From: Dehalococcoidia bacterium
GTDB lineage: Bacteria; Chloroflexota; Dehalococcoidia; DSTF01; JALHUB01
DNA: 41,781 nucleotides
Direction of reading: 5' to 3'
Assembly: GCA_022865685.1 (NCBI GenBank)
Contig: JALHUB010000251.1
Location: 1-41,781 of the forward strand
The translations under genes were made by a program, and so were the position numbers. Position 1 is the stretch's first letter, and the number at the start of each line of letters is the position of its first letter. Below, piece by piece: positions 18,847 through 41,097 of this stretch. The notes below the pieces were generated by a model, which saw only the letters and a list, made by a program, of their open reading frames with translations, had not been told where the DNA came from and did no database searches.

Positions 18847-20193
18847 TCAGAGGTCCACGAAGTAGAAGCTACACGCGATGTCGATGAGCTCCGGTCGCAG
18901 CTCTGGGCGCTCCCCGCGGTAGTTGGTGATAGACTCGATAAGCTCGACGATGTCGCGCGGATGGCAGCCACGCAGGGGCCGGTTCTTCGCGCCGTAGTGC
19001 TTGTCCATGAGGTATCGCAGCGCTTCTTCCGGGCAGGCGATCTCCTTGGACTCGCACACCTGCCGGAAGATGTGCTCGAAGTGGCACTGACTGGGGTCGG
19101 GCATCTCGATCTTGTGCCGAATGCGACGGAAGAAGGCCTCATCCCCAAGCTGCCGCGGCGGGATATTCGTCGAGAATACCAGCAATAGGTCGAACGGCAT
19201 GACGATCGTATCGCCGGTGTGCAGCGTCAGGTGATCGACGCCCTGCTCAAGGGGCACGATCCAGCGGTTCAGCAACTCCTTCGGCTCAATGAGCTGCCGC
19301 CCGAAGTCGTCGATGACGAGTACGCCGCTGTTCGCCTTGACTTGCAGCGGCGCTACGTAGAACTTGGACACGTCCGAGTAGCGAAGCTCCAGGTCCTGCA
19401 GACTGAGCGACCCGCCGGCCATCACCACCGGCCGCAGCGTCCTCACCCAGCGATGGTCGCGCCGCCGCTCGTCGGGCAGGCTCTCCAGAGTGCCGTCGCT
19501 CCGGCGGTCCGGATCCGTCTCATCCGGTATCTCGGCGTGCACGCGCGGGTCAAAGACCTTGATGATATGGCCGTTGTACTCGAACGCGTATGGGATTAGC
19601 ACCTGTCCCGGCAGCATCCGGCCGATGGCGCCGGCCGCGCTGCTCTTACCGTTACCGGAATTCCCATATAGCAGCATCGACCGGCCCGAATTGACGGCTG
19701 CCCCGAGCGCGTAGAGCGTCGTGTCGTCGAGGACGAGGTGCGCCAGCTCCTTCTTCTCGATATCGCTGTCAATGCGCAGGCCGCGCACCGACTGCCGGTG
19801 CTGCACCTCCACGTACTGCTCGAAAGCCACCGGCGCCGGTCCGTTGTACTGGCAGCGGCGCATCACCTCCTCCGCCTTCTCCATTCCCTTGACGGTCAGC
19901 GCATACTTGTACTGCGACTCGCCTGTCCCGCCGCTCCCCACTACCTCCACGTACTGCTCCCGCTTGAGGAAATCGAGAAGCTCCTCTACCACCGGGAAGG
20001 GCAGCATCATGTGGGCGCTGATCTGGCGCGCAACCGGCCTCCCCGCGAAGTAGATGCACTTGATGCACAAGTCGAGGAGGAGACCGGAGTGCAGCCCCGT
20101 CTCTTCGACGCTTTGCGGTTGGGAAATGAAGACGGTCGGCGGCGTGCTGTGGTGGTCTCGCTTAACCTCGATACCGACCTCGACCTGCTCCAT
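18847..20193 (-). CDS. AAA+ family ATPase of unknown function with N-terminal winged-helix-like domain
   Basis: Walker A LLYGNSGNGKSSAAG, Walker B VLVIDDFGRQ, sensor-1-like VFSTN, and Arg-rich FFRRIRHKIEMPDP. The N-terminal ~110 aa look like a wHTH (RQISAHMMLPFPVVEELLDFLKREQYVEVV). ATG 20193 has a GGAAGAGGAG SD, whereas the track start is TTG 20223. Confidence 0.7.
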   Translation of the reverse strand: MEQVEVGIEVKRDHHSTPPTVFISQPQSVEETGLHSGLLLDLCIKCIYFAGRPVARQISAHMMLPFPVVEELLDFLKREQYVEVVGSGGTGESQYKYALTVKGMEKAEEVMRRCQYNGPAPVAFEQYVEVQHRQSVRGLRIDSDIEKKELAHLVLDDTTLYALGAAVNSGRSMLLYGNSGNGKSSAAGAIGRMLPGQVLIPYAFEYNGHIIKVFDPRVHAEIPDETDPDRRSDGTLESLPDERRRDHRWVRTLRPVVMAGGSLSLQDLELRYSDVSKFYVAPLQVKANSGVLVIDDFGRQLIEPKELLNRWIVPLEQGVDHLTLHTGDTIVMPFDLLLVFSTNIPPRQLGDEAFFRRIRHKIEMPDPSQCHFEHIFRQVCESKEIACPEEALRYLMDKHYGAKNRPLRGCHPRDIVELIESITNYRGERPELRPELIDIACSFYFVDL

Positions 20194-20349
20194 CAGCTCC
20201 TCTTCCTGATTCGATCCGCGCAATAGCTAATGCGTAGACGGAGCCCGTCGCCGGGGTTGAGCCCGATGACCGGCAAATTGAGTATCGTATGAAAGCGTCG
20301 GCTTCTGAACAGCAAGGGCTTTCTCATAGCATTCGGCCCGTGGCCGTCG

Positions 20350-20826
20350 CTAGCCGGCGAGCAGGAGCTCACGCGTCAGATCACCCCAACTGAACATGAC
20401 CGTAGAAAGCCAGCGCGACGATTCGAAATACCCCGCGGCCCGCCATTGCTCCATCAGTTGTGTCAGTGTCGCAGGGACCGGCCCATCGGCGTAGAAATCG
20501 CTCGGCCGCAACACACCGAAGCTGTGGCGTACGGTCTCCTCGCTTTCCCCGCCGACGAGGCTGAGGGCCATCGTCACGTAGTCCAGCCCGTATGGGCGGC
20601 GCATCTGCGTCATCGTCGCGCGACACCATTGCAGAACGATGGAGTCGAGCTCGTCGGGTCGAACGGCCGTTGCCGGTTCGCCGCCCAGCTCCCAGCACAT
20701 GTGGTAGACTCCGACGCCCGCCTCAACGGCGTCCCGGACCTTCGACTCCGCCGACCCCTGTCTCAGCCGTCTTATCAGTGAAGCGAGGATCATGTTCCCT
20801 TGAACGGCGGGACCGCCCATGCGCAT
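20350..20826 (-). CDS. Hypothetical protein (158 aa), no recognisable domain
   Basis: Codon usage and third-position GC look coding. Co-directional with and 126 nt upstream of the AAA+ ATPase gene. No motif recognised. Start uncertain (20826 or 20793). Confidence 0.5.
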   Translation of the reverse strand: MRMGGPAVQGNMILASLIRRLRQGSAESKVRDAVEAGVGVYHMCWELGGEPATAVRPDELDSIVLQWCRATMTQMRRPYGLDYVTMALSLVGGESEETVRHSFGVLRPSDFYADGPVPATLTQLMEQWRAAGYFESSRWLSTVMFSWGDLTRELLLAG

Positions 20827-20950
20827 GCCCGCGACCCAACCTGGGCCGGCGCGGCGTCGCGAAAGGGCGTCCGTTTGAATTATCGGCAGAGGCGGGAGGA
20901 CGCTTCAGGTGCGGGCGCGTCGCAAGGCGCGAAGCTGGAGGGGAACAAGA

Positions 20951-21243: not shown

Positions 21244-22752
21244 TTACTCCGTCCGGCGGCGAGCCAGTCGCAGGCCGCTCAGCAGCAGCACAATGCCGCC
21301 CGCCGACAGGAGCACGCCGAAGATCGTCGGCCCTGACGGGGAGCCACCGCCGCTACCGGTGGGGGGCAGCTTTACGATCTCCAATACCTCAGTCACGGGC
21401 GTCGGCGCAACGAGCGTGGGTGCCGCTGTCGCCGTCGGCGCAGGCGTGCGCGTCTTGGTCGGCGTAGCCGTGTGGTGGTGCTCCTCAGTCGCCGTCGGCG
21501 GATGAGTGGCCGTCGCCGTAGCGGTAGGCGTGTCCGTTGGCAACGGAGTGGACGTCCCTGTCGCCGTTGGGGTGAACGTCTCCGTCGGCGGTGGCGTGAA
21601 GGTACGCGTTGCCGTCGCCGTTGGTGTCGCCGTCGATGTCGATGTTGGCGGTGGCGTGTAGGTACTGGTTGCCGTCGCCGTTGGTGTCGCCGTTGGTGTC
21701 GCCGTCGATGTTGGCGTCGGCGTGAAAGTGCTCGTTGCCGTCGCCGTTGCCGTCGCCGTAGGTGTCGCCGTCGATGTCGCCGTCGGTGTCGGTGTGAACG
21801 TGTTAGTAGGCGTTGCCGTACTGGTGTTGGTCGGCGTTGGCGTGAACGTGCTAGTCGGCGTCGCCGTCGGTGTATCCGTCGGCGTCGGTGTCGGCGTCGG
21901 CTGCACAATGGTGTTGGCCTGCATCTGGTTGTCGCGCTGGCCGATAGACGTGCCATCAAGCTCGACAGTCGCCACGTGGTACGGAGAGCCCGAGATCTCC
22001 GCAGCGCCTTTGCCGGTCCCCCAGTCGGCTTGACTGGCGACGTGGGCTCCCCAGGTAATCAAAACCTCACAGGTCGTCACGCCCTGTTTTGTGACCGGGT
22101 TAGCGCAGGTGAAGGTGTCGACGGTGAACGTCAGTTGAACGGTCGTTTCGCTATCCCCGGCGTAGCTGCCGCTAGCGAGCGTGGGCACGCCCACAACATC
22201 GATTGTCCCGTTGCGGATATAGAAGTGTTGGTCGCCAGCAGCGGTGTCAAACCCGTTGGCGTTCGGATCCGCCGGGATTGGCGGAGACGGGTTGGCAGTT
22301 AGTGTGCTGCAAGAAGCGAGATTGGTGATGGGAGGGTCACAGAAGTCAGCGGCCGTAATCCAGTCTTCCGAAAACAGGGGGTCCGTCAAGAAGTCGTACG
22401 CGTGCTTCCCGCCCTTCGTCGTGCCGTACGAGATGGTGACGGTGTGGGTACCGGTTATCAGTCCGTCGATCGCCAACCGCTGGACTGTCGCCTCCCCCTC
22501 CCTATAGAGGGAGTTGTTGTGCTGCAGGTTGCCATTGATCCAACGACAACCTGTGTCGCCGGTCGTGTAGCCGGTCCCTTGATCGTTCGAGCACTGGGAG
22601 TACAAGTCGATGCCGGCCTCGCCCGCTGCGACTGCCTTGCCGGGTCCGCTCCTACTGAGCGACACGAACAGAGCTAGTGCAGCGGCTGCAACGATACCGA
22701 GCAATAGCATCCAGCCTACACGGGTGCGTCCCATTTGAAATAGATCATTCAT
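21244..22752 (-). CDS. LPXTG-type (LPPTG) sortase-anchored surface protein with Thr/Pro-rich stalk
   Basis: N-terminal signal/TM ([19 protein letters not shown]) and a ~240-aa Cys-containing domain of unknown family. A ~170-aa TPTxT low-complexity stalk follows. The C-terminal sorting signal is LPPTG + [16 protein letters not shown] + [16 protein letters not shown] before ATG 22752. Confidence 0.85.
21397..21903 (-). repeat. Imperfect tandem coding repeats (Thr/Pro/Ala-rich stalk)
   Basis: Reiterated GTCGGCGT/GGTGT-type units on the plus strand encode (T/A)PT(A/S)T repeats. They also generate the Arg-rich shadow ORFs 21393..21959 and 21472..22302. Confidence 0.8.
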
Positions 22753-23202
22753 TGCGCTTGCCTCCTACGGCGAATCGTTCCGCCGACCCCGCGGCGAACA
22801 CGCGACCATTAGCCTATCCATCGCTTGCTGTCTTTCTCTCTCGCGTTGCCGCCGCGCCAATCGCAGACCGCCCATCAGCACGATGTGCCGGTCACTGACG
22901 AGACTGCAATCCCTCCGCGCCTGGGCCAGATCCCAGGACCGTCGGGGGTGATGCCACCTTGTTCGTATCATACCATACCCTGTCGGCATTTGCCGAATGA
23001 AAAACCGCCGCCTTCAGCTCAGAAGACAGCGGCTGAAGCGCTCCGAAAAAACCTCTTCGGCAGCCCGGCCGCCCTAGCCCCCTGTTCCCTGCCGTCGTCC
23101 TTGATAGCTACGCGGAGACCTTAGATCCGTGGCTTTGCGCCGGCCGGTTTCCCAGCCTTTGCCCTTTCGGAGACCGTATGTAGTTTTCACGAAGATAGAA
23201 TA

Positions 23203-23696: not shown

Positions 23697-23726
23697 TTGA
23701 GAACGCTCAGGCTAGGGCTTTATTAC
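23697..23726 (+). promoter_or_regulatory. Candidate sigma70-like promoter for flp1
   Basis: TTGAGA (23697-23702), 18-nt spacer, TATTAC (23721-23726). The predicted 5' UTR starts with the imperfect hairpin GATGGGCC...GGCCCATC (23728-23763). Confidence 0.3.
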
Positions 23727-23786
23727 AGATGGGCCCGCCTCTCGGCTAGAAGCGAGGCCCATCCAAAACAGCAGGAATACGGACGC

Positions 23787-23939
23787 ATGATGAGAATATC
23801 TAGCGACAGAGCACAGACGACCGCCGAATACGGCCTCATCTTTGCCCTCGTCCTAGTCGCAGTCGTCGTAACCTTTGTCGCCGTCGGTGGTGCCGTGCAA
23901 GGTCTCTGGGACTCCTTCATCACCGCCTGGCCTGCATAA
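23787..23939 (+). CDS. flp: Flp-family type IVb prepilin (copy 1, 50 aa)
   Basis: MMRISSDRAQTTAEYGLIFALVLVAVVVTF... carries the Flp xQTxAEYGLI motif followed by a hydrophobic helix. The track ORF from 23697 is a 5' extension. Confidence 0.8.
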   Translation: MMRISSDRAQTTAEYGLIFALVLVAVVVTFVAVGGAVQGLWDSFITAWPA

Positions 23940-24086: not shown

Positions 24087-26201
24087 TTGGCGCTCAGAAT
24101 CGCATCGATCGCTGCCGCAGCCGTCGGGATCGCCGCGTTCGCATCCACTCTGACGGCCGGCGCGCAGGAGGCCAACGGCGTTACCGTCGATGTCGCCAGC
24201 GTGGACGGCAGCCGCTTCCCCAGCCTGTCCGCCGTTGTCAACGTCCTCGACGCTAAGGGCCGCCCCGTCGCCGGCCTCGACACCGCAAGCTTCAGCGCCA
24301 CGATAGACGGCCGGCCCGCAATCGTCGAAGGACTCCAGTCCGTCGTCGACTCGCAGGTCAGCCTCTCCGTCGTCCTGGCCGTCGATGCCAGCGGCAGCAT
24401 GGCAGGCACACCGCTGAGCGCCGCACAGTCGGCCGCCGCGGAGTTCGTGAATGGCCTTTCGCCCCAGGACTCCGTCGCCGTCCTCGCGTTCAGCGACACC
24501 GTGACGGCCGTCCAGGAGCCGACGCCGGACAAGGCGACGGCCATCGGCGCCCTTCAAAACCTCACCGCCGCCGGCGATACGGCGCTCTTCGAGGCCACGA
24601 GCCGTGCCGCGGCCAAAGCCCTCGAATCGTCGTCACCGCGGCGCGTCGTCATCCTGCTGAGCGACGGCGTCGACTACGGTGGCAAGAGCAGCGTCACGCG
24701 CGACGACTCCATAGCCCAGGCGCGGGCCACCGGCGTTCCCATATACACCATCGCCCTCGGCGCCGAAGTCGACAAGGCCTACCTCAACGATCTGGCGCAG
24801 GCCACCGGAGCTCGTTTCCTGGAGGCACCCAGCCCGGAGGGTCTGTCGCAGCTCTACGCTGGCATCGCCGCCGTCCTGCGTGGCCAGTATGTCGTCGCGA
24901 TGCAGTCCCCCGCCGTCGACGTCGCGGCTTCACATGAACTCGAGCTGTCTGTCACCGTCGGAGGCACGACAGCCGTTGCCTCGAAAAGCGTCGCGTTTGC
25001 CGCGTCTGGCCAGTCCTCCCAGGTGACGCTCGAGGGGATTCGCTCCGGCGAAGATGTGAAGTCCGCCGTCACCGTCACCGCCCGGGTAAACGGCGGCGCG
25101 CCGACCGAGGTGCGCTTCCTCGTCGACGGAACGGCGGTGGCAACCGCTACGGCTCCTCCATACCAAGCGGCTCTCGATCCTGCCGCGCTGGCGAACGGAA
25201 ATCACACCCTGCGGGTCGAGGCAAGGGACGCGACAGGGATCCTGGGGTCTTCAGAGATCGGCTTCGCGGTCCCAGCCGCCGCGGCAGGCGGGACCAGCAA
25301 AGTGCCGCTGTTCGCGGCGCTTCTTGCGGTCATGGCGGCGACGGTGGTCATCTACGTATTGCGCCGGCGGCGCCCCCGTGTGAAACGACAGGTGGTCGAG
25401 GTGCGCCTGAAACCGTGGTCGAACAACACGCTGGTAGCGGGCAGCGTGTCGCTGGTCGACGAGGAGCCGGTACCCCCGCCGGCGCCCGAGCCCGTTGGGC
25501 GGCCCGGCGGCAAGCTGATCATCGTCGATGGACCTGACGCCGGCCGGGAATACCCCGTCGGCATGAGCCCCCTCAGCATCGGCAGCGCAAGCTGGTGCGA
25601 CATAACGTTCCCCGATCCGGACGAGCGCATAGGACCCGAAGAAGCGCGGGCCTGGGTCCACCAGGACAAGCTGATCTTCCACAAGTTGACGCGGCTCTCG
25701 CTCCTCGCCAGCGATGGGGCGGTCGGCGGCTGGCTCGTCCTGGAAAACGGTGACGAGGTGAACGTCGGCCACTTCCGGCTACGCTTCATCTCGCTGGCGC
25801 ACACGGCGGCGGAGCAAGACGTCCTCAACAGGGCAGTGAACGAAGCCGTGCAGCACCTCGCGGGCCGTGCCTCGGGTGGCGGAGTGGCCTCCCGGCTCTG
25901 GCCCGTTCACGACCTGCCCCCGCAGGCGCCCCAGGCCGAAGAGATGGGCCCGCAACTCGCCCCGTTCGAGATCGTGCCTGTCGACAACCCGCCGGTCGAA
26001 GCGCCCGAATCGAGAGAAGAGAACCCCGAGCCCGCACGTCCCAGGCTGTGGCCCGTCGACGACCCTCCCGTCGATTTGGCGGAGTCGGAAGACGTGGCCA
26101 ATCAACCCGATCCGTTCGAGCTCTGGCCCGTCGACGACTCGTCCGGCGAGCTGCACGGGCGAGAGGAAGATTCCGAACATCCGGCTGCCGCCTCCGTCTG
26201 A
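24087..26201 (+). CDS. Single-pass membrane protein: signal peptide, extracellular vWA + Ig-like domains, TM helix, cytoplasmic FHA domain, acidic repeat tail
   Basis: Signal AAAAVGIAAFASTLTAGAQEA. vWA MIDAS VLAVDASGSMAG...GDTALFEA...VILLSDGVDYGG. TM helix VPLFAALLAVMAATVVIYVL followed by RRRRP. FHA-like segment GKLIIVDGPDAGREYPVGMSPLSIGSASWCDITFPD...NGDEVNVGHFRLRF. Four C-terminal WPVDD-type repeats. Confidence 0.85.
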   Translation: MALRIASIAAAAVGIAAFASTLTAGAQEANGVTVDVASVDGSRFPSLSAVVNVLDAKGRPVAGLDTASFSATIDGRPAIVEGLQSVVDSQVSLSVVLAVDASGSMAGTPLSAAQSAAAEFVNGLSPQDSVAVLAFSDTVTAVQEPTPDKATAIGALQNLTAAGDTALFEATSRAAAKALESSSPRRVVILLSDGVDYGGKSSVTRDDSIAQARATGVPIYTIALGAEVDKAYLNDLAQATGARFLEAPSPEGLSQLYAGIAAVLRGQYVVAMQSPAVDVAASHELELSVTVGGTTAVASKSVAFAASGQSSQVTLEGIRSGEDVKSAVTVTARVNGGAPTEVRFLVDGTAVATATAPPYQAALDPAALANGNHTLRVEARDATGILGSSEIGFAVPAAAAGGTSKVPLFAALLAVMAATVVIYVLRRRRPRVKRQVVEVRLKPWSNNTLVAGSVSLVDEEPVPPPAPEPVGRPGGKLIIVDGPDAGREYPVGMSPLSIGSASWCDITFPDPDERIGPEEARAWVHQDKLIFHKLTRLSLLASDGAVGGWLVLENGDEVNVGHFRLRFISLAHTAAEQDVLNRAVNEAVQHLAGRASGGGVASRLWPVHDLPPQAPQAEEMGPQLAPFEIVPVDNPPVEAPESREENPEPARPRLWPVDDPPVDLAESEDVANQPDPFELWPVDDSSGELHGREEDSEHPAAASV
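25893..26156 (+). repeat. Four ~25-aa acidic repeats within the vWA-FHA protein tail
   Basis: RLWPVHDLPP (aa 603), FEIVPVDNPP (627), RLWPVDDPPV (653) and FELWPVDDSS (677), each followed by a Glu/Asp-rich stretch. The Trp/Val positions are spaced 25 aa apart. Confidence 0.75.
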
Positions 26202-26257
26202 CCCGTAGGACAGCCTCCCTTACTCTCGCAGTATCGCCTCGAATCCCTACGCATAAA

Positions 26258-26294
26258 CCCCTACAGGCTTTCCCCTAGCTGCCGATAACTAACT
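26258..26294 (+). promoter_or_regulatory. Conserved 37-nt upstream motif, copy B (before the ECF sigma gene)
   Basis: CCCCTAcAGGcTTTCCCCTAGCTGCCGatAACtaACT. Aligns with copy A at 17710-17746. Lies ~80 nt upstream of GTG 26374. Confidence 0.4.
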
Positions 26295-26373
26295 TAGGCG
26301 AACCCCCTAAGGGATACCGCCTACGGGGGAAGCACTACAACGTATCGCTACTCCGTCCTGTGGGGTTAATGCG

Positions 26374-26940
26374 GTGCTCAAACTCGACATACCGCCGGTG
26401 ACCGACGAGAGGATGCTCGTGCAGCGGGCGATTCTTCACGACAGTGAAGCCTTCGCCGGGCTCTACGATCGTCACGTCGTCCGCGTCTACCGGCACATCT
26501 ACTACATCATCAATGACCAGAAAGAGGCTGAAGACTTAACCGCCCAGACCTTCCTCCAGGCCTGGGAGGCGATCGGCCGTTTCCAACCTAGGGGTGCTCC
26601 CTTCGCATCGTGGTTGCTGCGCATCGCTCACAACCTGGCGGTCAGTCATCTGCGCGCCCGGAAGGGGGATGCGCAGCTCCACGAGTCACTTATCGACGAC
26701 GGCCTGCCCCGCAATCCCGAAGCAGTGGCCCAACGCCATGCCGAAGAGGAACGGGTCCGTCAGGCCGTCCTGCGCCTCGGCGACGACCAGCGGCAGGTCA
26801 TCATCCTGCGCTTCGTCGAGGAGCTGGACTATAAGGAAGTCGCCGAGATTCTCGGCAAAAGCGTGGCTGCGGTGCGCGTAATCCAGCACCGCGCCCTGTG
26901 CGCCCTGCGCAAGATCATGAAGGTGGAAGAGGTTGCCTAG
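26374..26940 (+). CDS. ECF-type sigma-70 family RNA polymerase sigma factor
   Basis: Region 2 (FAGLYDRHVVRVYRHIYYII...AEDLTAQTFLQAWEAIGRF...SWLLRIAHNLAVSHLR) and region 4 HTH (QRQVIILRFVEELDYKEVAEILGKSVAAVRVIQHRAL). Confidence 0.9.
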   Translation: MLKLDIPPVTDERMLVQRAILHDSEAFAGLYDRHVVRVYRHIYYIINDQKEAEDLTAQTFLQAWEAIGRFQPRGAPFASWLLRIAHNLAVSHLRARKGDAQLHESLIDDGLPRNPEAVAQRHAEEERVRQAVLRLGDDQRQVIILRFVEELDYKEVAEILGKSVAAVRVIQHRALCALRKIMKVEEVA

Positions 26941-27196
26941 CATCATCGAGGCGCTAGCCGATTGCCTGGAAGCCATGCGTGGGGGCGTGGAAATGGAGGT
27001 ATGTTTGGCGATGTACCCGGAGTGTCGCGCCGAACTGAAACCGTTACTGCAAATCGCGAGCCTCCTGCGGCCGCTGCCGCCGGAGATAACACCGTCGTCC
27101 GTCTTCAAAGAACGCACCAGGGTCCAGATCCTGGAGCGCCCCGAGGGACAGGACGGGACGTCGCTCGCGCCGGACCGGCCGTCGGGGAAGTTCTGA
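26933..27196 (+). CDS. Putative short anti-sigma factor (no TM segment)
   Basis: TTG start overlaps the sigma stop by 8 nt, with GGTGGAAGAGG upstream. IIEALADCLEAMRGGVEMEVCLAMYPECRAELKPLLQIA resembles the N-terminal helical domain found after ECF sigmas in Chloroflexi and Firmicutes. Only 87 aa, with no membrane or sensor part. Confidence 0.5.
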   Translation: MPSIIEALADCLEAMRGGVEMEVCLAMYPECRAELKPLLQIASLLRPLPPEITPSSVFKERTRVQILERPEGQDGTSLAPDRPSGKF

Positions 27197-27423: not shown

Positions 27424-27612
27424 ATGCGTTTCATTAATGACACCCTTCTCCGGCTTTACTGCTGGGCGAAGGACGAGACGGCCCAGACGATGGCCGAGTA
27501 CGGCCTGATCCTGGCCCTGATTTCGGTCGCCGCCATTGCCGCCCTGGTGCTCTTGGGGCCGCAGCTCAGGGCTATCTTCGACAGGATCACGGCAGCGCTA
27601 CAGGTGGCCTAG
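27424..27612 (+). CDS. flp: Flp-family type IVb prepilin (copy 2, 62 aa)
   Basis: AGGAGG SD at 27412-27417. ...KDETAQTMAEYGLILALISVAAIAALVLLG... is the Flp motif plus a hydrophobic helix. Confidence 0.88.
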   Translation: MRFINDTLLRLYCWAKDETAQTMAEYGLILALISVAAIAALVLLGPQLRAIFDRITAALQVA

Positions 27613-27630
27613 GGCGCTTCGCTGCAAACC

Positions 27631-27668
27631 CGAAAGGGGTGGGGAGGACCTCCTCCCCACCCCTTTCG
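27631..27668 (+). terminator. Strong hairpin after flp2
   Basis: CGAAAGGGGTGGGGAGG-acct-CCTCCCCACCCCTTTCG, a 17-bp perfect stem starting 19 nt after the flp2 stop. No U-tract follows. Confidence 0.6.
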
Positions 27669-27803
27669 ATCCCGATCGGGGCAACCACGCCATCGACGGA
27701 TCTGGAACCTGCGACAGGAATCCTTCCATCGGTCGATAATCAAAAGGGTAGCCGAAACCAGGAACCGAGTTGACGGTAGTAAGGCAGCCTATCATGTCGA
27801 AGG

Positions 27804-28053
27804 GCAACGGACTGCTAGATCGGCATGGCGGCGACGCGGTGGACGTCAGCGTGAAATCCTGGTACTACCCCAGCTACCCGGACCCGCCACATCAAGCGTT
27901 GCCGGCGTCGCCTGTGACGCGATCGAGGTTGAAGTAGACTGCGATCACCACTTCATAACGCCGCTGATCTCCAGCATCGTCAGTCACGTTCCTCTGAGCG
28001 AACGGTCTCGTGTCATGAACGAGCCATTTGGCCCCTGTGGCGCGGGTCACTGA
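27804..28053 (+). pseudogene. Possible degraded TadE/TadG-like pseudopilin remnant
   Basis: Frame 1 (no start codon) reads ...ACDAIEVEVDCDHHFITPLISSIVSHVPLSERSRVMNEPFGP*. This resembles the C-terminal beta-strand/FITPL tail of TadE-like proteins. Frame 3 upstream reads GDAVDVSVKSWYYPSYP. No N-terminal TM or prepilin segment is present. Confidence 0.3.
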
Positions 28054-28238
28054 CGGGGCGTCGTGGGAACCTGGGCGCGAATCTTCGGGGGAAGGCGGCG
28101 CATCGTGTTTCGGGGGTCAAGGCTTACCCATTGTGGCCGATACTCTTATAGGTGAGCTTGCCCAGCACTTAACCTGGCATTCGCTCCGACCGCGCTCGTA
28201 GCGGCGGGACGCTGATGCAGCAAACTGGAGGTAGCCCC

Positions 28239-29060
28239 ATGGCTAGAGCAGGAGCCGGCGGGTCGGTAGGTAGAATCAATGGTCGCTTCGCGCTGCTGAC
28301 CATCGTATGCGGGATCCTCAGCGCCGTCCTCGTATACGCCGCCATCGCGCGCAACGGCGGCGCCAAGCAGACCGCGTCCGCGGAGACGACAGCCGCGACC
28401 GTCATCGCGGCTGTGGACATCCCGGCGCGCACCGAGATCACCGCCGAGATGGTCGAGCTGAGAGACGTGCCGGTCAGCGGAAGGGCAGCCATGGCCCTCA
28501 GCAGCATCGACGACGTTGTTGGCAAAGTGACGCGGTACCCCGTTGTCCTCGACGATCAGCTAACTCTGAGCAAGGTTGTCTCGGTGGACGGAAGCGAAAA
28601 CGTCGACTCCCTCGCATTCGTGGTGCCGGATGGAAAGAGAGCCATCTCCATCTCCGCTGACCAGGTGCTCAGCGCCGGCGGCCTGGTATTGCCGGGGGAC
28701 TACGTTGACATAATGGGCGTTCTCTCCGGAACAAAGCCGGATGGCAGTGAAGTCGACAACTACGTCGTCAAGACCATCCTCCAGAACGTGCAGGTGCTTG
28801 CCGTGGCGCAGACCATCGCCGACGCGCCTGCCGGCGGAGAAGCCACAGCGAGCGACGGCCAGAAGGGTAGCAGCTCAGAGTCCAAGCCGAACCCCGAGGC
28901 GACGACGCTGACCATTCTCGTCTCGCCCGAGCAGGCCCAAACGCTGTTCTTGGCTGAATCCAACGGCACTCTGCGAGCAGTCGTTCGCGGCTACGGCGAT
29001 GCGAACGTGACGGAGCTGGCGCCCATCTATCAGAACCAGCTCACGCCGCCAGTGCCTTAA
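28239..29060 (+). CDS. cpaB: Flp pilus assembly protein CpaB/RcpC
   Basis: GGAGG SD before ATG 28239. N-terminal TM anchor (FALLTIVCGILSAVLVYAAI), SAF domain (VIAAVDIPARTEITAEMVELRDVP) and RcpC-type C-terminal domain. Confidence 0.85.
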   Translation: MARAGAGGSVGRINGRFALLTIVCGILSAVLVYAAIARNGGAKQTASAETTAATVIAAVDIPARTEITAEMVELRDVPVSGRAAMALSSIDDVVGKVTRYPVVLDDQLTLSKVVSVDGSENVDSLAFVVPDGKRAISISADQVLSAGGLVLPGDYVDIMGVLSGTKPDGSEVDNYVVKTILQNVQVLAVAQTIADAPAGGEATASDGQKGSSSESKPNPEATTLTILVSPEQAQTLFLAESNGTLRAVVRGYGDANVTELAPIYQNQLTPPVP

Positions 29061-29122: not shown

Positions 29123-30310
29123 ATGGCAAGAACTCCGGAAGCCGTAATCATTGACCCAGACCTCGGCACGCGAGCCGACATCAAGCGGGCACTCATGCTG
29201 GCGCATTTCACCGTGTCGGGCGAAGCAGGCTACGGCATCGAAGCCGTCACCGTTGCTAAGGAACAGGTGCCCGATGTCTTCGTCGTGAGCGCTGAAGAAC
29301 CGGTCGCACGCGCCCTCCAGACGATCGAAGCCCTGGGCGACGCCCTGCCCGACACGCCGACCATCGTCTACTCCTCGCTCGCCGACGCTGCCTCCGTCCG
29401 GCGCGCCATGGTCTCGGGCGCTCGCGACTACCTCATCAAGCCTGTCAAGCCCGAGGACCTGACCCGTGCCATCTACGGCGTCATGGGGCAGGAGGAAAGG
29501 CGGCGCATGCGTGCCTCCGGCGAGCGCCAGGAGGCGCCCGCACACGGCACCGTAATCACCGTCTTCGGCGCCAAGGGCGGAATCGGCAAGACGACCATTT
29601 CGACGAATCTCGCTACTGCTCTCGTTCGCGCCACCAGCAGCACCGTTGTTCTCGTCGACATGGACACGCGTTTCGGCGACGTCGCCATCATGATGGATGT
29701 GGCCGTCGAGCAGAGCATCGCCGACCTGGCACGCCGCGTCGGCGAAATGGACCGCGACACGGTGCGCGACTACCTGGTCCGCCACCACAGCGGGGTCATG
29801 ATCCTGCCTGCGCCCCTGCATCCTACGGAGTGGCGCAACGTCACGCCGCAGCAAATCACCAAGATCATCAACCTGCTCGCAGAGTCCTACGACTACGTTA
29901 TCGTTGACACCCCAGGCACGTTCAACGAGATCGTCGCCGTGACGCTGGAGTCGGCTGGCCTCATTCTCCTCGTCACGAGCATGGACATAGCCAGCATCAA
30001 GGACACCGCGCTTGCCCTGGAGATGCTCCAGAGCGCCGACGTCTCCGAAGACAAAGTCAAGCTCATGATCAACCACTCCACGGCGGCCAACACGCTGCGC
30101 GAGGAGGACGTCGAGCGCGTACTGGAGTACAAGGTGTTCTGGCGCATCCCTCACGACCTCAACGTCGCAACCAGCACGCAGCTTGGCCAGCCGGTCGTCA
30201 TTACCAAGCCCTACGCCAGAGTTTCGCGCAGCATCAGCGACCTCGCCGCGGCTCTCAGAGGCACGGTGACGGAGAAGAAGGGCTTCCTGGAGAGGTTCTT
30301 GGGACATTGA
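29123..30310 (+). CDS. cpaE: CpaE/TadZ-like pilus localisation ATPase (atypical receiver + MinD/ParA domain)
   Basis: Receiver-like N-terminus in which Ser replaces the phospho-acceptor Asp (PDVFVVSAEEP). Deviant Walker A FGAKGGIGKTTISTNLA. YVIVDTPG Walker B region. Confidence 0.85.
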   Translation: MARTPEAVIIDPDLGTRADIKRALMLAHFTVSGEAGYGIEAVTVAKEQVPDVFVVSAEEPVARALQTIEALGDALPDTPTIVYSSLADAASVRRAMVSGARDYLIKPVKPEDLTRAIYGVMGQEERRRMRASGERQEAPAHGTVITVFGAKGGIGKTTISTNLATALVRATSSTVVLVDMDTRFGDVAIMMDVAVEQSIADLARRVGEMDRDTVRDYLVRHHSGVMILPAPLHPTEWRNVTPQQITKIINLLAESYDYVIVDTPGTFNEIVAVTLESAGLILLVTSMDIASIKDTALALEMLQSADVSEDKVKLMINHSTAANTLREEDVERVLEYKVFWRIPHDLNVATSTQLGQPVVITKPYARVSRSISDLAAALRGTVTEKKGFLERFLGH

Positions 30311-30351: not shown

Positions 30352-31716
30352 ATGACTCAGTTCCAGTGGCAAGCACGAAAAACAGGCGCCGACGCCGGTG
30401 AGGGCGGCGGCCTTCGACGTCCTACCACCTCTTCCAGCCTTCTACAGACCAGCGAGGCGCTCACCGAACTCAAGTACAAGCTCCACCAGCGCCTCATCGA
30501 AGAGCTGGACCCGGGCAAACTGGACGGCCTGGAGCCCGCGAAGGCGCGCGAAGCCGTCGAGAGTTCCGCCCGTACCCTTATCTCCCAGGAGATGCCGGGA
30601 ATAGTCGGCGTTACCAGGGACGAGCTTGTCTCCGCCGTCGCGGACGAGGTCCTCGGTCTCGGACCTATCGAGCCAATGGTAAGGGACAAATCCATTTCGG
30701 AAATAATGGTCAACGCGCCCGACACCATCTTCTTCGAGAAGGAAGGTCGCATCTTCCTTAGCCCCATCCGGTTCCGCGACTCCAACCATATCCAGCGCAT
30801 CGCGGAGCGCATCATTGCGCCGCTGGGCCGCCGCGTCGACGAGTCATCGCCCATGGTGGACGCGCGCCTGGCCGATGGCTCCCGTGTCAACATCATCATC
30901 CCGCCCGTCGCTCCCAAGAGTCCCACGATCACGATCCGTAAGTTCCGCGAGGACAAGATGACGGCGGAGGACCTTATCAGCACAGGCACTCTTACCCGCG
31001 AGCTCTGTGAGTTCCTGCGCGCCTGTGTCCAGGTGCGGCTGAACATCGTCATCTCCGGCGGCACGGGTACTGGCAAAACGACTCTACTTAACGCCCTCTC
31101 CGCTTTCATTCCAGACACGGAACGAATCATCACAATCGAAGACCCGACCGAGCTTAAGCTTCAGCAGGGTCACGTCGTTAGCCTGGAGGCGAGGCCGGCA
31201 AGCCTGGAAGGAAAGGGTGAGGTCACACAGAGAGACCTCGTTCGCAACTGCCTCCGCATGCGCCCCGACAGGATTCTCGTCGGTGAGGTGCGCGGTCCGG
31301 AAGCCTTCGACATGATGCAGGCCATGAACACAGGCCACGAAGGCTCCATTACCACCGTTCACTCCAACTCCCCGCGCGACGCTCTCGCGCGCATAGAGAA
31401 CATGATACTAATGGCCGGCCTGGAGCTACCCATGCGGGCCATCCGGGAACAGATGGCCTCCGCTGTCCACATGGTCATTCAGATAGCCCGTCTGCCTGAC
31501 GGCACGCGCAAGGTCACGGCCGTCGCCGAGGTCACCGGCATGGAGGGGCAGGTGGTGACCATGCAGGACCTCTTCCGCTTTGATCAAAAGGGCATCGACA
31601 ACGAAGGACACGTAATCGGCGAGTTCCACTTCACCGGCATCCGTCCGCAGTTTGCAGAGAAATTCAAGCTAGCCGGCGTCGAGCTCCCGCAGGACATCTT
31701 CGGTCCGGGGTGGTGA
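30352..31716 (+). CDS. cpaF: CpaF/TadA secretion ATPase
   Basis: Walker [17 protein letters not shown], Asp box [12 protein letters not shown], Walker [13 protein letters not shown] and His box [21 protein letters not shown]. Confidence 0.93.
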
Positions 31717-31720
31717 TAGC

Positions 31721-32716
31721 ATGGATCCCCTGGCATTAGCCGCGGCCCTTTCCGTGATGGTCACGGTCGTCATGGTGTTCGCCGTCTTCTACATGACCTC
31801 GATCGCTGGAAGCAACAAGCGCGTCGTGAACCGGCTCGAACACGTTGTCAATCGTAGTCCGCTAGAAGGGCTCACCACCGTCTCGGCTCTCAAGCAGACC
31901 GGCGGCGGCCTCTTCCCGACGCTCGGCAGTCTGCTGACCGGCAAGGAATGGGCCAACAAGGTCAACATCGATTTGGAGCGCGCGAACCTCAAGCTGCGTG
32001 TCGGTGAGTACCTCGCTCTACGCGTGGCCATCGCTCTGGTGGTCCTCGCGGTCGTGATATTCGTCGCAGGCCGGGGCGGACTGGGGCTCGTCGCGGGCAT
32101 TGCTGCCGCGCTGGTGGGCTACATGCTGCCCAAGATGTACCTTCGCCGTCGCATCAAGGCGCGACTTACCACGTTCGACGAACAGCTTGTGGAGGCGCTC
32201 AGTCTCGTCTCCAACGCCCTGCGCTCCGGATTCGGCTTTCTGCAGAGCATGGACCTTGCGGCCGAGCAACTGAACGACCCCCTGGCCATCGAGTTCAAGC
32301 GCACCATCAACGACATCAACGTCGGCGCCAGCTTCGAGGACGCGCTCCTGGCGCTGAACCAGCGGGTCGAGAGCAAAGACCTGGACATAGTCGTCACCGC
32401 CATCCTGATCCAGCGCACGGTCGGCGGAAACCTCGCGGAGATATTGGAGACCGTCGCCTACACCATGAGAGATCGCTCCCGCATTAAGGGCGAGTTGCGG
32501 ACGCTGACCGCGCAGCAGAAGATGTCCGGGTATATCGTCGGCGGACTGCCTATCTTCATCATCGGCATCCTGCTTCTCATGGGTAAATTGATGGGCGATA
32601 CCTACATGCAGACTCTGTTCACGGAGACCGCCGGCCGGGTGGCCCTGATGGCCGCGGTACTCCTCGAGGGACTTGGGATAATGATTATTCGCAAGATCCT
32701 CGCCATCGAGGTTTAG
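31721..32716 (+). CDS. tadB: TadB (type II secretion system F-domain platform protein)
   Basis: N-terminal TM, a central cytoplasmic T2SSF domain (FDEQLVEALSLVSNALRSGFGFLQSM...) and two C-terminal TM helices. Position immediately after cpaF. Confidence 0.85.
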   Translation: MDPLALAAALSVMVTVVMVFAVFYMTSIAGSNKRVVNRLEHVVNRSPLEGLTTVSALKQTGGGLFPTLGSLLTGKEWANKVNIDLERANLKLRVGEYLALRVAIALVVLAVVIFVAGRGGLGLVAGIAAALVGYMLPKMYLRRRIKARLTTFDEQLVEALSLVSNALRSGFGFLQSMDLAAEQLNDPLAIEFKRTINDINVGASFEDALLALNQRVESKDLDIVVTAILIQRTVGGNLAEILETVAYTMRDRSRIKGELRTLTAQQKMSGYIVGGLPIFIIGILLLMGKLMGDTYMQTLFTETAGRVALMAAVLLEGLGIMIIRKILAIEV

Positions 32717-32727
32717 CGGAGATCGAA

Positions 32728-33633
32728 ATGGCACTACTCGCAGCGGCATCGGTATTTGTCACCGTCGTCATGTTCGCGCTATCCTTGCGCAAGACTGACG
32801 ACAACCCCATCAGAGCCCGCGTCGCCGGCCTTGCGACGTCGCGCATGTTCGAGGGCGGGCAGCCCGCAACATCCTTCGGCGAGCGTATCATCGGACCGCT
32901 GTTCGGAGGCGTCGCGGACAAGGCCGTCGCTATGCTTCCCCAGGGCATGCTCGAGCGGCTGAAGCTCCAGCTTGTGCGGGCCGGTGATCCCATGACACCG
33001 GCGGGGTTCATGATGGTCCGCATGATCGCCGGCGGAGTCCTGGCGGGGCTTGGCCTTTCCGTGGGCGTCGCGATGAGAGGGACGCTGGATGCCAAATCCC
33101 TCGCCCTGGCGGTCGTGCTCGGCGGCGTCGGCGCCTTCCTGCCCTCAATGTGGCTGTCCAGTCGCGTGCGCCAGCGTCAGACCGAGATCATCAAGAGCCT
33201 GCCCGATTCCTTCGATATGATCACTACCTGCGTCGAAGCCGGCCTCGGCCTCGATGCTGCCCTGACGCGAGTCGCCGAGAAGGTGAAGGGCGCCTTCGCC
33301 GAGGACCTTTCCATTACCCTGCGCGAGATAGGGATGGGCCGTAATCGCGTCGAAGCCCTGCAAGACCTGGCCAATCACACCGGCGTCGCGGACCTGACTC
33401 TGTTTGTGAACGCTATAGTACAGGCGGAGCAGCTGGGCACGAGCATTGGCCAGGTGCTGAGGGTGCAGTCGGAGCAGATGCGGATACGCCGCCGTCAGCG
33501 CGCTGAAGAGGCGGCCAACAAGGCGCCCGTGAAGATGATCTTCCCGCTCGTCCTGTGTATCCTTCCTACGTTGTTCATCGTGATCATGGGACCCGCCGCA
33601 ATCCAGCTCTACGAATCGTTCAGCAAGAACTAG
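32728..33633 (+). CDS. tadC: TadC (type II secretion system F-domain platform protein)
   Basis: Same T2SSF architecture (IIKSLPDSFDMITTCVEAGLGLDAAL...QLGTSIGQVLRVQSEQMR). Second paralogue after tadB. Confidence 0.85.
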   Translation: MALLAAASVFVTVVMFALSLRKTDDNPIRARVAGLATSRMFEGGQPATSFGERIIGPLFGGVADKAVAMLPQGMLERLKLQLVRAGDPMTPAGFMMVRMIAGGVLAGLGLSVGVAMRGTLDAKSLALAVVLGGVGAFLPSMWLSSRVRQRQTEIIKSLPDSFDMITTCVEAGLGLDAALTRVAEKVKGAFAEDLSITLREIGMGRNRVEALQDLANHTGVADLTLFVNAIVQAEQLGTSIGQVLRVQSEQMRIRRRQRAEEAANKAPVKMIFPLVLCILPTLFIVIMGPAAIQLYESFSKN

Positions 33634-40230: not shown

Positions 40231-41097
40231 CTAGCCGGGCTCGGGCGAACAGCCGGGGACGAACCTGGCGCGACGGTGCGCCGCCTCGTTTACCATGTGG
40301 AACAGCAGGCCCAGGCCCGCCAGGGCGATGGCGCCGCTTCCCAGCTCGATCCCGATAGACTCGATTAGCGACGGCCCCGGCTGAATCACCAGTATGTTCC
40401 AGAAAGCGTGGAACAGCACAGCCGTCGTGAACGCCGCCGCCACCGGCACGTTGACCACGCGCCGTCCCAGCTTCTCGCGCTCGCGCCAGAGCACCGCGCA
40501 CACCAGCCCGGTCCAGGCGCCGTGCCCCGCCGGCGACAGGAGTCCTCGCACAATCAAAGTCGTCTCGACCGCGCCGATCCCCTTCGACGATTGCGCGGCC
40601 GCAAAGCCGTAGCCTATCGTCTCCAGCGCCGCGAACCCCATGCCAGCCGCCACGCCGAATATCACGCCGTCCGCCTGCGAGCAGTAGCGCCCGTGGAAGT
40701 ATATCCCCAGTGGAATGATTAGCTTCGCGCTCTCCTCGATCACGCCAACGCCGAACATCTCCGCCGCGCCCAGGCTGCGCAGCGTCGCATATTCCAGCGT
40801 CGCCGCTATGGACACGCCGAGGGCGCCGCCCCATAGAAAGCACAGGACTACCACACCCGCCGGTATGTCGCGGCCGGGCTCGCGCTCGTACACGTACGCG
40901 ACGAAAGCCACCGGCACCACGAACGCGCCCACGATGATGACAATAGGTATGTCCGTCGGATTACCCAGTCCGCGGACCAGCGCCACGAGGAGGAAGAATA
41001 GAACCGTCCCGCCGACGAGCACGCGGGCGGACGTGCGTCGAAAGGGCAGCGCAGGCTTGTTGCGCGCCATCATCCTATCCGCCGCCTTCCCTGGCAC
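40231..41097 (-). CDS. PrsW-family intramembrane metalloprotease
   Basis: Polytopic membrane protein with EESAKL (the PrsW EExxK motif), AAGMGFAALETIGYG and GHGAWTG motifs. Confidence 0.8.
   Translation of the reverse strand: MPGKAADRMMARNKPALPFRRTSARVLVGGTVLFFLLVALVRGLGNPTDIPIVIIVGAFVVPVAFVAYVYEREPGRDIPAGVVVLCFLWGGALGVSIAATLEYATLRSLGAAEMFGVGVIEESAKLIIPLGIYFHGRYCSQADGVIFGVAAGMGFAALETIGYGFAAAQSSKGIGAVETTLIVRGLLSPAGHGAWTGLVCAVLWREREKLGRRVVNVPVAAAFTTAVLFHAFWNILVIQPGPSLIESIGIELGSGAIALAGLGLLFHMVNEAAHRRARFVPGCSPEPG

Follow-up and report, generated by a model that had tools for sequence, protein, structure and literature searches.

What is a protein that would join an extracellular adhesion domain to a cytoplasmic forkhead-associated (FHA) fold doing at the head of a pilus gene cluster? 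The question is raised by contig JALHUB010000251.1 of a Dehalococcoidia bacterium (assembly GCA_022865685.1), the whole 41,781 nucleotides of which are referred to here as the window. The gene concerned, hereafter the vWA-FHA gene, lies in a locus for a Tad (Flp) pilus. A preliminary description of the window, made from the sequence alone, had interpreted its product as an extracellular metal-dependent domain of the von Willebrand factor A (vWA) type wired to a cytoplasmic reader of phosphothreonine (pThr). The out/in topology, the link to the Tad system and the lack of a described precedent all stand, but the phosphothreonine reader does not. The reading preferred here, with a probability of about 0.5, is that the protein is a lineage-specific accessory Tad component of monoderm Chloroflexota (Dehalococcoidia-like soil bacteria), the FHA domain of which docks phospho-independently.

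The open reading frame (ORF) is a real gene, since full-length homologues at 98%, 82%, 69% and lower identity were found in a protein database search. An AlphaFold2 (AF2) model of the full-length product, built with the family alignment, has a mean predicted local distance difference test score (pLDDT) of 74, rising to 85–95 in the folded parts, and reproduces all of the following parts of the protein.

24087..26201, plus strand: vWA-FHA gene, TTG start, 704 amino acids (aa), predicted type-I membrane protein
24087..24164, plus strand: Sec-type signal peptide, residues 1–26 (hydropathy, h-region, AGA|QE junction, and an AF2 helix at 2–22 followed by a low-pLDDT break)
24174..24350, plus strand: N-terminal β-sandwich, residues 30–88 (strands 33–43, 46–54, 69–73 and 76–85, pLDDT 85–93)
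24363..24905, plus strand: vWA domain, residues 93–273 (PF00092, MIDAS (metal-ion-dependent adhesion site), Foldseek)
24930..25271, plus strand: β-hairpin, residues 282–303, and immunoglobulin (Ig)-like domain, residues 312–395, forming a predicted extracellular stalk (PF17957 Big_7, model strands)
25302..25364, plus strand: single transmembrane helix, residues 406–426 (top hydropathy window, 2.47; AF2 helix 406–426)
25365..25508, plus strand: basic stop-transfer patch, juxtamembrane motif VRL(K/R)PWSN and Pro-rich linker, residues 427–474 (sequence, alignment, model)
25509..25793, plus strand: degenerate FHA-fold domain, residues 475–569 (AF2, Foldseek, family profile, residue mapping)
25809..25862, plus strand: amphipathic helix following the FHA fold, residues 575–592 (both AF2 models)
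25863..26198, plus strand: disordered acidic Pro-rich tail, residues 593–704 (composition, motifs)

Each part named in the preliminary description was recovered by Pfam, hydropathy and the AF2 model. The signal peptide and topology were called from hydropathy, charge and the model. The signal-peptide segment is the second most hydrophobic stretch of the protein (Kyte-Doolittle), and the family alignment showed this N-terminus to be retained among homologues. A prepilin leader was ruled out, as the signal is of the Sec type and the N-terminus of the protein has no G/A-x4-E/F motif. The transmembrane helix is followed directly by the basic patch RRRRPRVKR, and the C-terminal third is assigned to the cytoplasm because the signal peptide, the single transmembrane helix and the positive-inside rule agree. 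The vWA domain is thus predicted to lie outside and the FHA fold in the cytoplasm, with one membrane pass, as first described. In the juxtamembrane segment R440, P443 and W444 are conserved in the family alignment, and the Pro-rich linker is disordered in the AF2 models (pLDDT <50).

The assignment of the cytoplasmic sandwich required structure. Pfam gave no match to PF00498 FHA in the vWA-FHA protein, the sole match from the FHA clan (CL0357) being PF16697 Yop-YscD_cpl at E = 0.0064 and 17.2 bits against a cut-off of 33.2, and NCBIfam gave no FHA call for the protein. Because of this, the predicted structure of the cytoplasmic part was searched by fold. Its AF2 model has pLDDT 85–96 across residues 475–569, and the top 50 Foldseek matches from the Protein Data Bank (PDB) were all FHA domains, with the best E value of 1.6e-6 for GarA and target-normalised TM-scores of 0.73–0.79. 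The structures matched include GarA, OdhI, FhaA, DgcB, MDC1, Ki67 and ArnA, together with YscD (4a0e) and PscD (6uid) of type III secretion systems (T3SS). A single-sequence search of the PDB reached GarA at E about 0.03 only, and a profile of the family reached it, across the full domain, at E about 1e-4. The sandwich is therefore described here as a predicted FHA domain at the level of fold only: the modelled structure and the family profile favour the FHA call, and PF00498 is silent.

Alignment of the domain to GarA and to two canonical FHA proteins encoded on a related contig (locus L005) indicated that, among the canonical pThr-binding residues, Gly alone is kept. The Gly-Arg of the β3-β4 loop is replaced by Gly-Ser (G499-S500), the Ser-Arg-x-His-Ala of the β4-β5 loop by Gly-Pro-Glu-Glu-Ala (G516-P517-E518-E519-A520), and the Ser-x-Asn of the β6-β7 loop by Arg-Leu-Ser. 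A family profile search over 1.84 billion representative proteins gave at least 348 clusters (50% identity) at E ≤ 1e-10, and family-wide conservation was computed on 184 sequences of this set. In these, the pocket Arg is replaced by Ser, Thr or Ala, and Glu occupies the His position in 90%; the position of the Ser of S-x-x-H, which is Gly in the window protein, is not conserved family-wide. A replacement signature consisting of G499, R521, W523, H532 and W549 is 98–100% conserved and is seen in the family motif E-E-A-R-x-W (E518-(E)-A520-R521-x-W523). At 99–100%, R521, W523, H532 and W549 of the FHA fold are the most strongly conserved residues of the whole protein. As the replacements are fixed family-wide and have a signature of their own, the pThr-contact residues have been lost and the loops are under strong selection for some other role.

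Given that the pocket Arg, Ser, His and Ser/Asn are all replaced, phosphothreonine reading, as proposed in the preliminary description, fails. The accompanying observation that the window encodes no Ser/Thr kinase or phosphatase agrees with a Pfam scan, in which none of the window ORFs scanned matched Pkinase or PP2C; likewise, the 20-kb neighbourhoods of relatives that were read contain neither a protein kinase nor a PP2C gene. Hence, the FHA domain probably serves for docking within the pilus machine rather than as a phospho-signalling receptor.

One relative, P0038 from locus L005, has a canonical PF00498 FHA domain (GR...SRQHA...SPTN). It shares with the window protein a layout of vWA, Ig repeats, transmembrane helix and FHA, and is 33% identical to it in the ectodomain. 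However, the P0038 gene is flanked by genes for two small FHA proteins and a Ser/Thr kinase, and no tad genes are present on its 5.9-kb contig, whereas the window protein combines a degenerate FHA domain with a tad cluster. The P0038 type probably represents the phospho-dependent ancestor of the architecture. The simplest history would be that the Tad locus of this lineage took over a kinase-linked vWA-transmembrane-FHA receptor, which then lost phospho-recognition.

The cytoplasmic partner is suggested by a second set of relatives. The homology search also brought up six actinobacterial proteins (P0040–P0045, e.g. from uncultured Nocardioidaceae) annotated as 'Flp pilus assembly protein TadB', in which Pfam finds an N-terminal vWA and a C-terminal T2SSF (TadB) domain. 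Their layout is a signal peptide, the N-terminal β motif of the window protein (ITGVDTSDHPEV...), a MIDAS vWA, one transmembrane helix, a basic patch and a TadB module, and the vWA part is 34% identical to residues 63–291 of the window protein (~230 residues). The ectodomain modules are homologous, and the fusions carry TadB where the window protein has the FHA fold, helix and tail. No description of a vWA-TadB fusion was found in the literature searched. Judged from sequence, one ectodomain has been fused to a platform protein in Actinobacteria and to an FHA fold in Chloroflexota. As the TadB fusions carry the same ectodomain, we infer that the FHA fold brings it to the platform or motor; the fusions provide, by analogy, the strongest argument for such coupling.

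A phospho-independent FHA fold in a membrane machine has its closest parallel in T3SS. YscD/PrgH has a cytoplasmic FHA fold that is not known to retain pThr-binding residues and that docks cytoplasmic parts of the machine (the sorting platform). Like the window protein, YscD/PrgH/PscD (PF16697) is bitopic with a cytoplasmic FHA fold, and YscD serves a trans-envelope nanomachine. However, the topology is reversed, the FHA domain being N-terminal and inside in YscD and C-terminal and inside here, and the outer part is made of ring-building motifs in YscD but of vWA and Ig-like domains in the window protein. Membership of the YscD/PrgH family was rejected on the basis of the sub-threshold PF16697 match, the reversed topology and the absence of T3SS genes among the window ORFs.

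The Tad assignment rests on the genes that surround the vWA-FHA gene. Their order is Flp-like pilin, vWA-FHA, extracytoplasmic function (ECF) sigma factor, 87-aa ORF, Flp pilin 2, CpaB/RcpC, CpaE/TadZ, CpaF, TadB, TadC and DUF192, and the pilus genes are as follows.

23787..23939 (listed ORF 23697-23939), plus strand: Flp-like pilin gene 1 (PF04021 Class_III signal, E = 2e-5; AEYGLI motif)
27424..27612, plus strand: Flp pilin gene 2 (PF04964 Flp_Fap, E = 1e-9)
28215-29060, plus strand: CpaB/RcpC (Pfam RcpC)
29123-30310, plus strand: CpaE/TadZ, REC and ParA domains (Pfam Response_reg and ParA/AAA_31)
30352-31716, plus strand: CpaF ATPase (Pfam T2SSE)
31721-32716, plus strand: TadB (Pfam T2SSF)
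32728-33633, plus strand: TadC (Pfam T2SSF)

The earlier placement of the gene between two pilin genes is supported by Pfam for both pilins, and the interval also includes the ECF sigma gene and the 87-aa ORF. Pilin gene 1 probably starts at the Met at 23787, giving ~50 aa as in homologous loci, where a small gene occupies the same place. It matches archaeal PF04021 rather than Flp_Fap despite its AEYGLI motif.

Synteny was assessed in 20 contexts with enough flanking sequence, namely the window and 19 related ones. The flp/tad genes are syntenic with the vWA-FHA gene in 20 of 20, with this gene at the head of the cluster; linkage in other genomes, on which the preliminary description had made its interpretation depend, was thus found throughout. 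The linkage includes members of <50% identity and lineages with different flanking genes. The 12 species-level relatives are all uncultured Dehalococcoidia or 'Chloroflexia' metagenome-assembled genomes from soil and peat, and tblastn with the window proteins recovered the same gene order in all fetched loci, including metagenome contigs. In separate 50%-identity clusters represented by P0131, P0076, P0124 and P0092, the vWA-FHA gene is followed by the ECF sigma gene and then by Flp and/or CpaB-E-F-TadB-C genes, and some of the flanks differ. P0158 (L023) and P0174 (L025) have no sigma gene downstream and directly head a flp-tadE-...-cpaB-cpaE-cpaF-tadB-tadC cluster; in these two loci the gene is preceded by genes for OmpR-type response regulators and a histidine kinase or GAF protein. 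Since the sigma-less loci keep the tad linkage, the invariant partner is the Tad system, and the sigma gene is frequent but dispensable. In L023, a gene for a protein with DnaJ and a weak FHA match was also seen after tadC.

The vWA-FHA protein is distinct from the vWA minor pilins of such loci, as it has no PF13400 or PF07811 match in Pfam and no homology to TadG/CpaL. No TadE/TadG-like minor pilin genes lie between flp2 and cpaB (27612-28215) in the window or in L001. In most relatives (L002, L004, L008, L010 and L016 were compared), this interval includes a TadE gene (PF07811) and a gene for a TadG-like protein of 385–448 aa (PF13400), so that the TadG-like gene co-exists with the vWA-FHA gene in most related loci. 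No prepilin peptidase was detected among the window ORFs scanned.

The extracellular part is predicted to include a metal-dependent adhesion domain. The vWA domain matches PF00092 over residues 95–256 (E = 2e-18, 67.7 bits against a cut-off of 23.8) and the MIDAS, D100-x-S102-x-S104...T165...D193, is complete. In an alignment of 35 family members, conservation is complete for S102, S104, T165 and D193 and at least 90% for D100; the Pfam match and this alignment bear out the DxSxS...T...D motif recognised earlier from the translation. When the full-length model was submitted to Foldseek, vWA structures came up at E about 1e-13, among them the adhesins LapA vWFA, S. sanguinis PilB and ANTXR2; these are generic vWA proteins only and gave nothing specific on the ligand. 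The N-terminal β-sandwich falls within a match to TIGR03436 (NCBIfam, 78 bits), and the Ig-like domain matches PF17957 Big_7 at residues 322–377 (E = 1e-9), with model strands at pLDDT 86–93.

In the mechanism proposed for the preferred reading, the metal-dependent vWA would be displayed outside the cell on the β-sandwich and Ig stalk. The pseudo-FHA domain would dock without phosphorylation onto TadB/TadC, CpaE or CpaF, in the manner of the FHA domains of T3SS YscD/PrgH, and thereby hold the vWA at the Tad platform or motor. A non-covalent adaptor would then do what Actinobacteria do by fusing the ectodomain to TadB. Placed beside the pilus exit site, the vWA could recognise an acidic residue, either on a pilin or minor pilin or on a surface ligand. 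The helix and the tail with its LWP motifs would be an add-on, which may connect to the adjacent ECF sigma module.

This tail has 25 D/E against 6 K/R residues and 20 Pro, and includes three copies of LWPV(D/H)D at residues 604–609, 654–659 and 679–684 (nt 25896-25913, 26046-26063 and 26121-26138); it ends in a conserved C-terminal D-x-x-PAAAS. Many distant clusters have a related LWP motif after the helix, and the tail varies from 1 to 582 aa. In P0158 and P0174, which form a tail-less subgroup, helix and tail are missing and the FHA fold is the C-terminus. Helix and tail occur in every locus with a following ECF sigma gene and are missing in the two sigma-less loci. As their presence tracks the sigma gene, the helix and LWP tail may couple the protein to the ECF sigma regulator, in a correlation that includes two sigma-less loci only. 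The regulatory part of the locus comprises the following.

26254-26330, plus strand: conserved block from the vWA-FHA stop codon to the sigma start, AACCCCTACAG-N13-CTGCCGATA(A/C), then a GC-rich hairpin (CCCCCTAAGG...CCTAcGGGGG)
26374..26940, plus strand: ECF sigma factor (Pfam Sigma70_r2 and r4)
26933..27196, plus strand: 87-aa ORF overlapping the sigma stop codon, conserved in most loci and without a transmembrane segment

The sigma factor is nearest to the BldN family (NCBIfam TIGR02952, 139 bits, below the cut-off of 206). In the window and in 17 of the 19 related contexts, its gene comes directly after the vWA-FHA gene, and the protein is 71–94% identical across 15 loci compared by tblastn. 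The 87-aa ORF has no Pfam match and a faint NCBIfam match to 'anti-sigmaE' (E = 0.02), and is a tentative candidate for a small anti-sigma factor. Despite the sigma adjacency, neither Pfam nor NCBIfam detected an ECF anti-sigma domain (ASD, zf-HC2/RskA type) in the vWA-FHA protein. A gene for a PrsW-family intramembrane protease (PF13367, E = 8e-31) was noted at 40231-41097 on the minus strand, 13 kb from the sigma gene; in Bacillus, PrsW is the site-1 protease for an ECF anti-sigma factor.

The conserved block is kept in 15 of 15 loci, distant ones included, with an invariant TGCCGAT core. A structured RNA was considered and set aside, as there was no Rfam match and RNAalifold gave three invariant pairs with no covariation; for the same reasons, the block reads as a putative promoter (-35 CCCTAC, N17, -10 CCGATA) and leader of the sigma gene. 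A -10-like GCCGATA(A/C)T recurs on the plus strand at 28136-28144, ~70 nt upstream of cpaB, and on the minus strand at 20879-20887, upstream of hyp158/AAA_16, a divergent pair that is itself conserved (20350-20826 and 18847-20223, minus strand). In L008, L015, L019, L006, L017 and L018, related sites are found ahead of cpaB or flp. A full promoter position-weight matrix over-fitted the spacer, and a leaner matrix and the plain motif GCCGATAMT were used. The two matches to the motif in the window against 0.5 expected are a weak excess. The sigma, cpaB, flp and hyp158 sites may belong to a shared regulon, the motif being either the ECF sigma factor's own or a general -10 box.

On the other side of pilin gene 1, a c-di-GMP-I riboswitch lies on the minus strand at 23056-23173 (Rfam RF01051, 64 bits against a gathering score of 35, E = 2e-10) and is followed by a terminator-like hairpin and T-run at 23034-23003 on the same strand. 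The riboswitch is upstream of a minus-strand gene at 21244-22752, divergent from the flp1 and vWA-FHA genes. The product of 502 aa is Thr/Pro-rich with an LPPTG, transmembrane and RRR end, and looks like a sortase-type surface protein.

Several observations weigh against a role as a docked Tad component. That an ECF sigma gene lies next to it almost everywhere speaks for a regulatory role. One clade contributes much of the synteny and is also collinear from MutL to a thiolase gene, so that part of the linkage reflects vertical inheritance; the distant members were examined because of the dominance of this clade. The vWA-FHA gene also diverges faster, at 41–61% identity against 75–90% for CpaE/CpaF, a difference that suits a core structural role no better than a peripheral or sensory one. 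Finally, the residue loss makes pThr binding unlikely but is compatible with an unusual phospho-ligand. The first of these points leads to a different interpretation, in which the protein serves the adjacent ECF sigma factor as an outside-in receptor. The vWA would sense surface contact, the pilus or metal, and the FHA fold, helix and tail would hold or release the sigma factor or its 87-aa partner, making the protein a non-ASD anti-sigma or co-anti-sigma factor with control over flp/tad transcription. Besides the gene order and the joint absence of sigma gene, helix and tail in two lineages, this is consistent with the existence of vWA-containing anti-sigma factors (ECF group 289; PMC7826278) and with the CCCTAC-N17-CCGATA found before the sigma gene in all loci, the similar -10 before cpaB and, elsewhere, flp suggesting a shared regulon. 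However, searches of the protein detected no anti-sigma domain, the sigma gene is usually accompanied by a small downstream partner of its own, and the tad link persists where two-component regulators replace the sigma gene. In addition, the ectodomain is fused to a structural protein, TadB, in Actinobacteria, and the correlation of tail and sigma gene involves just the two loci. This interpretation is possible but doubtful. Rather less likely is a combined scheme, a new trans-membrane coupling device in which a vWA engaged with the pilus or surface would be read by a pseudo-FHA domain that gates the CpaE/CpaF motor ring and, via the helix and LWP tail, the ECF sigma factor, as a kinase-free FHA-fold anti-sigma factor or assembly checkpoint.

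It is improbable that the protein is a genuine pThr reader serving a kinase and phosphatase encoded elsewhere that control Tad assembly, as PpkA/PppA/Fha do for type VI secretion (T6SS). The predicted fold is indeed that of FHA, P0038 places a canonical FHA beside a kinase and makes a phospho-dependent ancestor probable, and the Tad-like Kil system of Myxococcus is rich in FHA proteins (PMC8460266). However, the phosphate- and peptide-contact residues are all replaced, with Glu where His is expected, the Pfam FHA profile is silent, and kinase and PP2C genes are missing from the window and from the 20-kb homologous neighbourhoods read. Similarly improbable is a plain membrane-anchored adhesin, co-expressed with pili and making no contact with the Tad machine, in which the vWA would itself attach to the substrate and the cytoplasmic part would serve localisation or turnover only. 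The complete MIDAS and Ig stalk, as in LapA vWFA, S. sanguinis PilB and ANTXR2, would suit such a protein, as would its faster divergence than the core Tad genes and the neighbouring gene for a surface protein under c-di-GMP riboswitch control, which would make the region an adhesion island. Yet the highest conservation falls on R521, W523, H532 and W549 of the FHA fold, which is not what would be expected of a passive anchor, and the TadB fusions point to a physical link with the platform. The accessory Tad component docked through its pseudo-FHA domain is therefore the reading retained.

The domains and the Tad system are known; the arrangement, the degenerate FHA and the conserved position in the locus are new. 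A vWA at a Tad pilus has been described in TadG/CpaL, a tip-located minor pilin with a suggested role in adhesion or mechanosensing (PMC12607857). Both proteins have a MIDAS vWA encoded in a tad locus, but the TadG/CpaL domain is attached to a pilin-like N-terminal module cleaved by prepilin peptidase, whereas the window protein has a Sec signal, a C-terminal transmembrane helix and a cytoplasmic domain. The pairing of FHA and vWA at a type IV filament is also seen in ArnA (FHA) and ArnB (vWA), which regulate the Sulfolobus archaellum in a phosphorylation-dependent manner (PMC4858521), and an ArnB-type vWA and the ArnA FHA were among the structural matches. However, ArnA and ArnB are separate soluble proteins of the cytoplasm with genes elsewhere than in the filament locus, whereas here one chain crosses the membrane and the FHA is degenerate. 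The Myxococcus Kil locus includes FHA proteins, for which a role in assembly gating has been proposed (PMC8460266). Like Fha/TagH of T6SS, these are FHA proteins of a Tad-like or secretion locus; they act via Ser/Thr phosphorylation, as proposed for Kil and shown for T6SS, and none is described with an extracellular vWA. The in situ structure of the Caulobacter Tad machine (2026) has a CpaE ring around CpaF beneath the platform (PMC13170226), and current models, including this one, comprise CpaB, TadB/C, CpaE and CpaF with no bitopic linker between the outside and the cytoplasm. No vWA-transmembrane-FHA Tad component was described in the literature searched, in agreement with the preliminary description, and public annotation of the family is limited to 'VWA domain-containing protein', 'VWFA-related protein' or 'YegL'.

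The hosts are uncultured, which limits the practical impact until a tractable relative is found. The family provides a clear case of an FHA fold re-purposed after the loss of pThr recognition, with a canonical kinase-linked relative for comparison. Tad pili of monoderm bacteria are poorly understood, and the vWA-FHA family, with at least 348 clusters, is a candidate for a link between the outside and the cytoplasm in the Tad machine of Chloroflexota. The vWA-TadB fusions suggest that the same solution is used in another monoderm phylum.

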